DNA of 11,574 bases, from the NCBI RefSeq assembly GCF_003334315.1, contig NZ_QOWR01000085.1; one strand, 5' to 3'. The notes below the pieces were generated by a model, which did not search any database, was not told the DNA's origin, and saw nothing but the letters and a program-made list of their open reading frames with translations. Source of the stretch: Escherichia coli. Lineage in GTDB: Bacteria; Pseudomonadota; Gammaproteobacteria; Enterobacterales; Enterobacteriaceae. The translations under genes and the position numbers were made by a program. This document shows positions 8,328-9,422 of the stretch, one piece after another. Position 1 is the first letter of the stretch. Every line of letters starts with the position of its first letter.

Positions 8328-9422
8328 ATGAGCAGACCGGACTGGGGGGCGTTGCAGCAGGAGTATATTGCTGAATACACCCGCTCCGGTATATCTCCGG
8401 TGGCATGGTGTGAAGCAAGGGGACTGAATTACGCAACAGCCCGTCGTTACATCAAAAAAACTCCGAAAAATGCGCAGACAGAAATGTGCAAAACTGCGCA
8501 AAAAAGTGCGCAGAAAAAATCTGCGCAGACTGCACAAAAGCGGAACGAAAAATCTCAGGAAAAAAAGCCAGTATTCGATGCGGGCCTGAATGAGGGCGAC
8601 GCGGAGGAATTTTCGTTCTGTCCCGATGAATTCGGCATTTCTGACCAGCAGGCTAAGTTTGCGATGCTTGTTGCTCAGGGTAAAAAGCCGACAGAGGCGT
8701 ACCGACTAGCCGGTTATGAGGGGCAAGGTGCGACAGCTAACAGCAACGCCAGTCGTATGCTTAGAAATGCCAGGGTTTTTCGCGCTATCAGCTACTTCCG
8801 CAATCAGTACCAGAAACGCTATACCGCAGACCTGGATTTACTAGTGAGTCAGTTGATGGCTATTGTCCTGGCCGACCCCAATCAGCTTGCACAATTTCGC
8901 CGTGTTAACTGCCGTTATTGCTGGGGCGAGAATCATCTCTACCAGTGGCGCGATATAGCAGAATTCGACAAGGCAGCGGCGCAGGCTTCCAGAGATGGCA
9001 AACCCGAACCGGAATATGGAGGCCTCGGCTTTGTTGATAACGCCATACCCAATCCGGACTGCCCGAAGTGCTGCGGTGAGGGAACGGGACAGCTTTATAT
9101 GGCTGATACCACTCTGCTTGATGGGGATGCGCGGCAATTATATGCAGGGGCAAAATTCGGAAAATTCGGCGTTGAGATCCTGCTGGAGGATAAGGCTGCC
9201 GCCCGGCGTGAATTGTTGCGTTTGTTTTCTGCTGGCGGGGCTTTATGTGCAGATAAACGGCTACAGGAACTGGAAATTGAACGGCGCAGAATGGAAAACC
9301 AGAAGCTGCGCAAAGAGATCGAAACGGTGGAAGATAATGAACATCCCCAGCCTGTGGCGATCAATATTAATGTGGTTGATGCCAGAGTAAGGAGTGATGA
9401 AGATGATCTCTCCGACGCTTAA
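8328..9422 (+). CDS. Terminase small subunit (atypically long)
   Basis: Residues about 100-160 (ISDQQAKFAMLVAQGKKPTEAYRLAGYEGQGATANSNASRMLRNARVFRAI) match the small-terminase signature; sits directly upstream of and overlapping the large terminase gene; extra N-terminal HTH, KQ-rich linker, Cys cluster and C-terminal coiled coil. Confidence 0.7.
   Translation: MSRPDWGALQQEYIAEYTRSGISPVAWCEARGLNYATARRYIKKTPKNAQTEMCKTAQKSAQKKSAQTAQKRNEKSQEKKPVFDAGLNEGDAEEFSFCPDEFGISDQQAKFAMLVAQGKKPTEAYRLAGYEGQGATANSNASRMLRNARVFRAISYFRNQYQKRYTADLDLLVSQLMAIVLADPNQLAQFRRVNCRYCWGENHLYQWRDIAEFDKAAAQASRDGKPEPEYGGLGFVDNAIPNPDCPKCCGEGTGQLYMADTTLLDGDARQLYAGAKFGKFGVEILLEDKAAARRELLRLFSAGGALCADKRLQELEIERRRMENQKLRKEIETVEDNEHPQPVAININVVDARVRSDEDDLSDA
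8471..8536. repeat. Cluster of TGCGCA-type hexamer repeats inside the terminase small subunit gene (candidate pac/terminase recognition site)
   Basis: TGCGCA at 8471, 8495, 8507 and 8522, plus degenerate TGTGCA at 8486 and TGCACA at 8531, spaced 9-15 bp. Confidence 0.4.

Follow-up and report, generated by a model that had tools for sequence, protein, structure and literature searches.

Small terminase subunits (TerS) assemble into rings that display their helix-turn-helix (HTH) domains on the outside, and, in phage P1, repeated short hexamers (TGATCA/G, Dam sites) clustered within the gene of the small subunit serve as the packaging signal (pac). In phage P22, pac is also found inside terS (PMC11260489). 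TerS-pac binding in vitro is generally weak and largely sequence-independent (PMC9611059, PMC4737164), and the DNA-binding domain of SF6 G1P binds pac without sequence specificity (PMC4737164); the choice of viral DNA by pac-type TerS is still called elusive. Here, we describe terS at positions 8328-9422 of an 11,574-nucleotide (nt) stretch of an Escherichia coli contig (NZ_QOWR01000085.1, RefSeq assembly GCF_003334315.1), which we call the window. On balance, we favor the explanation that this gene encodes a functional-type TerS of a Rac-type headful prophage, with a pac cassette made of an extra N-terminal HTH domain and an array of sites encoded just behind it, and with a structural module of four cysteines (Cys4).

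The array lies at +144 to +209 relative to the start of terS, in the DNA encoding the linker that joins the N-terminal HTH domain to the rest of the protein:

8471-8536, no strand assigned, array of the palindromic hexamer TGCGCA with four perfect copies and two one-base variants, separated by A-tracts

The perfect copies are at 8471-8476, 8495-8500, 8507-8512, and 8522-8527, and the variants are TGTGCA at 8485-8490 and TGCACA at 8531-8536. Tandem-repeat tools report a 12-nt in-frame repeat at 8466-8539 with TGCGCA as its core, and none of 2000 dinucleotide shuffles gave four TGCGCA within 57 bp, or even within 60 bp. We then compared a set of 43 non-redundant genes whose products have an N-terminal domain of this type, in some cases at a protein identity of only 39-54%. 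The linkers of these genes contain 24 TGCGCA/kb, ~60-fold more than the flanking DNA (0.39/kb), with 1.5/kb over the remainder of terS, and the positional histogram shows one sharp peak at +100 to +199 of terS. The hexamer is read in all three frames (180, 30, and 22 cases), giving xAQ, [VLM]R[KTN], and CA[DEK], respectively. Furthermore, 171 of the 192 Ala-Gln dipeptides in the linkers are coded as T|GCG|CAR, as opposed to 2 of 94 in the open reading frames (ORFs) of the large terminase subunit (TerL) and the portal. Homologous genes carry three to eight copies, mostly five or six, at spacings of mostly 9-16 bp and again with A-tracts between them, and the linker length varies among alleles by indels of 12 and 27 nt.

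Other subgroups of terS have other motifs at the linker: namely, two copies of TGCGAATTCGCA, a perfect palindrome of 12 bp, at a distance of exactly 33 bp; GTTTCCA twice followed by its reverse complement; and CCGACC twice followed by two to three copies of GGTCGG. In frameshifted alleles, the array is kept in the DNA while the peptide is wholly changed. Because the hexamer occurs in all three frames, its codons are biased relative to those of TerL and the portal, and dyad symmetry has no meaning at the level of a peptide, we are very confident that these sequence patterns mark an element acting at the DNA level. The peptide, as far as can be told from the sequences, is the translation of a cis-acting site array, and a linker predicted to be disordered can tolerate such an encoded array. 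The terminase gene contains a cis element that is under selection as DNA and whose sequence is matched to the recognition helix of the protein that the same gene encodes. These results suggest that the array probably functions as pac. As to physical signs of pac, the ends of IMG/VR contigs gave no consistent pattern, and searching for TGCGCA with terminase and for the pac of F116 or 933W, within an incomplete coverage of the literature, gave no description of an HTH-plus-array cassette.

Both variant sites in the window are CpG transitions, of which one is synonymous and one replaces Arg by Cys (EMCK in place of EMRK), while most relatives have TGCGCA; the first variant (TGTGCA) is common to the loci L023-L025. 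The element may be decaying in this defective prophage, or alleles may simply vary at these positions. An extra TGCGCA is also present at 9307-9312 (AAG CTG CGC AAA, peptide KLRK) in the region of the C-terminal helix, and 24 further copies were noticed at +800 to +999 of terS across 39 class-1 loci. This C-terminal TGCGCA could be a second, weak site or could reflect only shared descent of the tail.

The array is likely to be read by the N-terminal HTH, given that the motif follows the third helix of this domain and not the G1P-type DNA-binding domain located behind the linker. Every protein with ...ARR(Y/H)(I/L/V)K in that helix is accompanied by TGCGCA, and every protein with ...AKRYIK by TGCGAA/TGCGAATTCGCA. 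When the G1P-type domain is only 23-30% identical to that of the window, ARRYIKK and TGCGCA are both kept; when it is ~60% identical but the helix reads AKRYIK, the other motif is found. The same pairing was obtained in a reverse search that started from the DNA of IMG/VR contigs and used no protein information. The first 120 contigs in which TGCGCA stands three times at close spacing include 71 with the HTH encoded immediately ahead of these sites in the same orientation, and all 71 have "ARR"; where two TGCGAATTCGCA stand 10-35 nt apart, the HTH is encoded in 94 of 100 contigs, all 94 with "AKR". The N-terminal domain itself is HTH-like by the topology of its model only. It resembles the IS66 TnpA-type HTH family NF047593 with an E-value of 2.5e-5 and 24.7 bits, below the curated cut-off of 28, and a PDB profile search and a Pfam alignment scan gave no significant match.

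The cassettes are not confined to one type of TerS. ARR with TGCGCA and AKR with TGCGAATTCGCA are each found on two cores, one consisting of Terminase_2 with the presumed zinc module and the other an unrelated core of ~246-296 amino acids (aa) that matches phrog_370 "small terminase" with E-values of 2.6e-88 to 7e-118 and has no match in Pfam, Terminase_2 included. In the locus L196, the gene with the phrog_370 core precedes those of TerL and then the portal. C-terminal tails such as ...NAIVVHNSLPIPGR are common to both cores, which fits a separate module that matches TerL. A tblastn search with the N-terminal domain retrieved 254 phage records, ~150 of which are Shiga toxin (Stx)-converting phages. 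In TerS of VT2-Sakai (H0127; 933W L0112 type), the recognition helix reads NTARTRIKM (ARTRIKM), and its gene has four GATCAT with an exact period of 12 nt (L215 3141-3182, +141 to +182), translated as IDHEIDHKTDHEIDHD (IDHE/IDHK/TDHE/IDHD). These 42 bp contain four Dam sites and occupy the same position as the TGCGCA array of the Rac type. Taken from these sequence comparisons, the HTH and the array would form a portable, self-matching specificity cassette that has been shuffled among unrelated TerS cores.

That the ORF at 8328-9422 encodes TerS is virtually certain. Its parts and the adjoining gene are as follows:

8328-9422, plus strand, terS, small terminase gene (phrog_51 E 1.7e-75 over the full length; Pfam Terminase_2 independent E-value 3e-7)
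8328-8462, plus strand, extra N-terminal three-helix HTH domain, aa 1-45 (AlphaFold2 helices 6-20, 24-31, and 35-41; predicted local distance difference test score, pLDDT, ~90-95)
8463-8636, plus strand, disordered K/Q/A-rich linker, aa 46-103 (pLDDT 44-49 for aa 60-90 and <50 for aa 65-88)
8637-8885, plus strand, G1P-type (Terminase_2) HTH DNA-binding domain with the first helix of the oligomerization core, aa 104-186
8886-9122, plus strand, four-cysteine module inserted in the oligomerization region, aa 187-265 (invariant Cys, autonomous predicted fold)
9123-9338, plus strand, resumed Terminase_2 homology with a short helix, a beta-hairpin (aa 272-286), and a long charged helix (aa 289-337) (profile positions 182-219 equal G1P 117-154; DSSP of the model)
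9339-9419, plus strand, acidic C-terminal tail, presumed to bind TerL, aa 338-364 (pLDDT 48-57; same tail types on different cores)
9403-10704, plus strand, terL, large terminase gene (phrog_2 / phrog_10250; RefSeq coordinates in L001)

Pfam Terminase_2 (PF03592) aligns aa 122-321 of this TerS to model positions 19-129 (111 positions); the match is weak because an insertion stretches it over those 200 residues, and 98 of 101 homologues also match the model (best 2.1e-40). SF6 G1P is matched by the family profile in two segments, profile 5-87 to G1P 21-103 and profile 182-219 to G1P 117-154, and between them, inside the oligomerization region, the family has ~95 alignment positions where G1P has ~13 residues. 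With a G1P-like helical HTH DNA-binding domain and a gene upstream of and adjoining terL, the protein is a G1P-type (Terminase_2) small terminase by sequence, predicted fold, and gene position, and by analogy it would oligomerize into a ring, typically of nine subunits, that stimulates TerL. phrog_29114 covers aa 258-364. The models are of monomers, with secondary structure assigned by DSSP; the putative recognition helix of the N-terminal HTH is NYATARRYIKK. The acidic tail is presumed to be the TerL-binding moiety by analogy with TerS of the P22/SPP1 type (PMC9611059).

An earlier, sequence-only reading of this gene had described ~95 residues ahead of the terminase signature, a charged tail, and a total of 364 aa, about twice the usual size, and these points agree with our results: ~100 residues form the modeled three-helix bundle and the disordered K/Q/A-rich stretch, the model has a long charged helix followed by the acidic tail, and solved phage TerS protomers are 15-21 kDa (PMC9611059). 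Its "KQ-rich low-complexity linker" is indeed K/Q/A-rich and predicted to be disordered (pLDDT <50) but is more than low complexity in that it encodes the palindromic site array. The architecture, which that reading called atypical, is not rare. When 1.84 billion cluster representatives (clusters at 50% identity) were searched, 1774 relatives were found, and the core family with the zinc module counts 1253 clusters at E<=1e-10, including named phages already annotated with TerS: F116, phiC725A, Bcep22, BcepIL02, BcepMigl, DC1, BcepC6B, BcepB1A, PEp14, LASTA, and the Yersinia YenM phages. Most relatives are 240-260 aa long, align only to aa ~104-300, and have no N-terminal extension; because they start at about aa 104, the N-terminal ~100 residues are an add-on of a subset. 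We also noticed a perfect tandem duplication, AAAATTCGG twice at 9152-9169, which encodes KFGKFG in the region of the beta-hairpin, where homologues have a single K-x-G-K/N-x-G-like stretch.

The cysteines noted in the sequence-only reading are at aa 195, 198, 245, 248, and 249 (C-x2-C ... 46 aa ... C-x2-C-C), together with three scattered ones; the codons are at 8910-8912, 8919-8921, 9060-9062, 9069-9071, and 9072-9074, respectively. In an alignment of 101 sequences with 26-52% identity to the query, C195, C198, G200, C245, C248, G250, and G252 are invariant, and all four Cys are present in every intact representative. A lack of conservation of the cysteines, which that reading had named as a refutation, is thus ruled out for four of the residues, but the fifth (C249) is variable. 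Also, the cluster does not follow the terminase signature as had been stated but lies inside it, given that the Terminase_2 match spans aa 122-321. The two knuckles are C-R-x-C-x-G (CRYCWG) and C-P-x-C-x-G-x-G (CPKCCGEGTG), and the spacings CxxCxG and CPxCxGxG are those of DnaJ-type structural zinc knuckles, a likeness at the level of the motif only. In the full-length AlphaFold model, the Cys region has pLDDT of ~97-98, and the isolated module of 85 residues is predicted with pLDDT of 93.9 and a predicted template modeling score of 0.72. Strands at 188-193 and 253-258 stand beside the two CxxC motifs (pLDDT ~98), with a helix between the knuckles. The suggestion of a zinc ribbon is supported by the two CxxC knuckles, the invariant Cys4 and Gly residues, and the adjoining predicted strands, but not by the fold, since a comparison with the PDB, solved zinc ribbons included, gave no match.

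From the conservation and the models, it is highly likely that the Cys4 module binds a metal at a structural site, most likely zinc. The module is most probably a structural elaboration of the oligomerization region, with a fold class that has no solved analogue and is shared across the family, and most likely stabilizes or extends the oligomerization core. A role in DNA recognition or oligomerization had been proposed for the cluster; its location fits the latter, whereas the N-terminal HTH and the linker array are the better candidates for sequence-specific recognition. As the zinc module is present in relatives without the N-terminal domain, it is independent of the N-terminal cassette, and, as judged from the alignments, the Cys cluster is an ordinary conserved feature of the family. 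We did not find a prior description of a zinc site in TerS of a tailed phage in the literature searched, the coverage of which was incomplete; if confirmed, the Cys4 module would, within that literature, be the first metal site described in such a protein.

Taken together, TerS in the window would consist of four exchangeable pieces: the N-terminal HTH, the site array, the G1P-type domain, and a ring core with the Cys4 insert. The extra HTH would supply sequence specificity by reading the palindromic array encoded immediately downstream; several copies of it, flexibly tethered to one TerS ring, would engage five to six sites ~12 bp apart, and this binding would load the ring, or nucleate it, at the terS of phage DNA. 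G1P-type domains would then wrap the adjacent DNA by non-specific contacts, as in SF6/SPP1, while the C-terminal helix and the acidic tail would recruit TerL, which would cut nearby and package towards terL, with terL translationally coupled to terS. The ring core contains the insertion of ~80 residues, which would be held together by a Cys4 metal site (most probably Zn2+) with the two CxxCxG knuckles. Because the array lies in the segment that joins the HTH to the core, the reader and its site would be inherited and recombined as one unit. Metal binding, the binder of the array, and the initiation of packaging upon binding are functions that we infer, and the chances appear about even for the wider proposal that a self-recognizing packaging-specificity cassette is shuffled among unrelated cores, including those of Stx phages, and that the Cys4 insert is a previously undescribed metal-binding fold in a TerS ring.

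Other explanations of the array need to be weighed. It might be a real cis element bound by the HTH of TerS and yet serve autoregulation of terS or the late operon, or tethering of TerS near its own gene; a match between a DNA element and an HTH says nothing on what the binding achieves, and dyad-symmetric sites at the 5' end of the first gene of an operon are also typical of operators. We nonetheless regard such a role as unlikely, because, on two unrelated TerS cores, the HTH is fused covalently into the subunit that recognizes DNA for packaging, pac is inside terS in P22 and inside the gene of the small subunit in P1, and the packaging series of a related phage starts at the terminase genes: in phiC725A, an F116-like member of the zinc-core family, headful packaging was reported with an excess of reads that begins at the terminase genes (PMC5217972). 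Also, an array of five to six copies ~12 bp apart suits a ring with multiple HTHs better than a dimeric repressor. Alternatively, the repeats might be ordinary low complexity of the protein, in which replication slippage lengthened a basic, flexible tether, with the hexamer as a by-product of recent tandem duplication. The 12-nt period does correspond to four codons in frame, copy number does differ among alleles by indels, and the peptide is disordered; however, the hexamer is kept at 39-54% protein identity and in every frame, one codon combination is used in 89% of cases as opposed to 2% elsewhere, palindromes or inverted arrangements without meaning for a peptide occur in three other classes, and frameshifted alleles retain the array despite the complete change of the peptide, all of which make slippage very improbable indeed.

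A reader other than the N-terminal HTH, namely the G1P-type domain, the 83-aa product of the upstream ORF (8073-8324), or some host factor, is quite improbable. In its favor, the locus L007 has TGCGCAA repeats behind a different type of HTH, and the 83-aa ORF, which includes an HTH-like segment, is retained beside terS by some relatives. The G1P-type domain was nevertheless rejected as the reader, the motif being uncoupled from it, and so was the upstream ORF, which is absent from L006, L088, and L089 despite their full arrays; the pairing of helix and motif is, moreover, perfect in 165 independently retrieved loci. Regarding the module in the core, the four Cys might form disulfides or hold iron (rubredoxin-like) or another redox center with a regulatory role, as Cys4 sites are able to bind Fe and no known zinc ribbon matched the module in structure. 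This is improbable for a cytoplasmic protein with the knuckle spacing of the structural zinc type; the 101 aligned homologues share neither additional conserved ligands nor a cofactor motif, and Pfam detects no redox domain in them or in the protein of the window. Several observations still weigh against a pac cassette read by the N-terminal HTH. L007, with its different N-terminal HTH yet five CTGCGCAA (TGCGCAA repeats), means that the pairing of motif and helix is not strictly one-to-one. Most members of the family lack the N-terminal cassette, which is hence an add-on and not the general recognition mechanism of the family. The array in the window has four perfect sites as compared with five to six in most relatives, and the prophage is defective. 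Furthermore, the sequence to either side of TGCGCA is rich in A on one and the same strand and hence not symmetric, which may be only a coding bias for Lys.

The gene itself is intact: it starts with ATG, encodes 364 aa, and has neither internal stops nor frameshifts. Its DNA was matched in 896 of 5426 complete E. coli genomes, under the RefSeq label "terminase small subunit," with at least 80% coverage in 852, and it is collinear with homologues down to 39% protein identity. A sequencing artefact or a fusion of two genes, which the sequence-only reading had left as a possible refutation, is thereby ruled out. By its gene content (a lysis cassette, trkG, ParB-like and glycosyltransferase-like genes, terS, terL, and portal), the window is a Rac-type lambdoid prophage. 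The end of terS and the start of terL overlap by 20 nt (RefSeq start at 9403) or by 29 nt (GTG at 9394), and terS, terL, and portal follow in this order. In the region 10707-11574 of the window, the portal gene encodes only 139 aa, as opposed to 468 aa in an intact relative (L001 11380-12786), and a fragment of IS1 transposase lies on the minus strand (11137-11514; NF033558, E 6.7e-36). Because IS1 interrupts and shortens the portal gene, this copy of the prophage is defective for head assembly.

A frameshift in the linker breaks terS in two in many E. coli assemblies (e.g., L091 4001-5094 and L092 4001-5093; proteins P0312, P0307, and P0283), and P0312 alone was found on 62 contigs. The "proteins" of 85-87 aa retrieved with the N-terminal query are not a separate gene but such frameshifted alleles, broken inside the A-rich linker, and this first ORF translates the TGCGCA array in another frame (LRK and CAK peptides). 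The split genes may be dead alleles, homopolymer sequencing errors, or functional versions in two pieces. In phage Rac-SA53 (L002 2912-3940), the homologue is labeled by its depositor "gpOterS; fusion of two genes by deletion," and only nt 481-1213 of the terS region of the window align to it, so that the N-terminal HTH and the array are missing from what is nevertheless listed as a complete phage.

Directly upstream, the 83-aa ORF at 8073-8324 ends 3 nt before the ATG of terS. It matches phrog_309 "terminase small subunit" (positions 145-218 of 319, E 8e-23) and no family in Pfam or PDB; an ORF of 83-88 aa is found at the equivalent position in L004, L005, and L091 but not in L006, L088, and L089. 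It may encode a packaging accessory protein. Just upstream of the packaging genes, a protein with a ParB_N domain and a TAGT-family glycosyltransferase-like protein (PF20691; phrog_842 "beta-glucosyl-HMC-alpha-glucosyltransferase") are encoded by an overlapping pair at 6421-7212 and 7184-8137. The pair is conserved at L005 1099-2743 and L091 2091-3810 and also beside a terS of only 44% identity, and could serve in DNA modification. Between the regulatory and lysis regions, two small ORFs (2289-2717 and 2868-3263) have homology to the C-terminal domain of TolA (TIGR02794, E 4e-21 and 2e-12), one of which is annotated in RefSeq (L001) as a tolA pseudogene fragment.

If correct, the lead of HTH and array would explain in concrete and testable terms the specific recognition of DNA by a large group of pac phages. 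This TerS family would then be a tractable case, with natural specificity variants (ARR/TGCGCA, AKR/TGCGAATTCGCA, and ARTRIKM/GATCAT), sites that are palindromes of 6-12 bp, and five to six repeats; the same cassette on two unrelated ring cores makes recognition, the geometry between ring and array, and the swapping of specificity testable. It predicts a packaging signal for Rac-type prophages, which are in ~16% of complete E. coli genomes, and, by extension, a candidate signal for Stx-converting phages, and hence matters for the transfer of host and virulence genes by lateral and generalized transduction. The pac specificity of hundreds of enterobacterial phages and prophages would be readable from terS and could be re-programmed by a swap of the cassette. 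Also, a low-complexity protein region dictated by a function of the DNA calls for caution in annotation and in codon-level engineering.

In comparison with known systems, G1P of SF6/SPP1 (PDB 3ZQP/3ZQQ, 2CMP, and 4ZC3) is a protein of ~16 kDa with neither the extra N-terminal HTH nor Cys, and has ~13 residues in place of the region of ~95 positions that holds the zinc module in TerS of the window. The fingers of DnaJ (CxxCxGxG) resemble CRYCWG and CPKCCGEGTG as motifs; DnaJ has two metal centers as opposed to one presumed center in the window, and the two show neither homology nor similarity in fold. As for zinc sites among terminase small subunits, a review mentions only TerS of herpesviruses; these proteins (pUL28/pUL56) have zinc fingers with no homology or fold similarity to the module in the window. 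TerS of the Bacillus phages Sam46 and Sam112 (PMC8190038) has a similar layout, with an extra sequence-specific domain (residues 11-70) ahead of the Terminase_2 core (107-230). The added domain there is, however, a winged-helix FtsK_gamma and not a transposase-like HTH, the Cys module is absent, and a site array in the linker is unreported. Conversely, TerS of phrog_370, including those of 933W and VT2-Sakai (H0127/L0112), share the N-terminal HTH and the linker array at the same distance from the start codon but have a wholly different C-terminal core with neither a Terminase_2 match nor the cysteine module. At the equivalent place, the four GATCAT of these Stx-phage relatives, which are Dam sites, recall the hexamers of P1 pac, while TGCGCA in the window contains no GATC. 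P22 gp3 is comparable to the cassette proposed here in that the packaging signal is within the coding sequence of TerS and pac travels together with its reader (PMC11260489, PMC9611059); the pac of P22 is a single asymmetric sequence of 22 bp in the structured part of a different TerS family, whereas that of the window would be a repeated palindrome in a disordered linker with a dedicated extra HTH.

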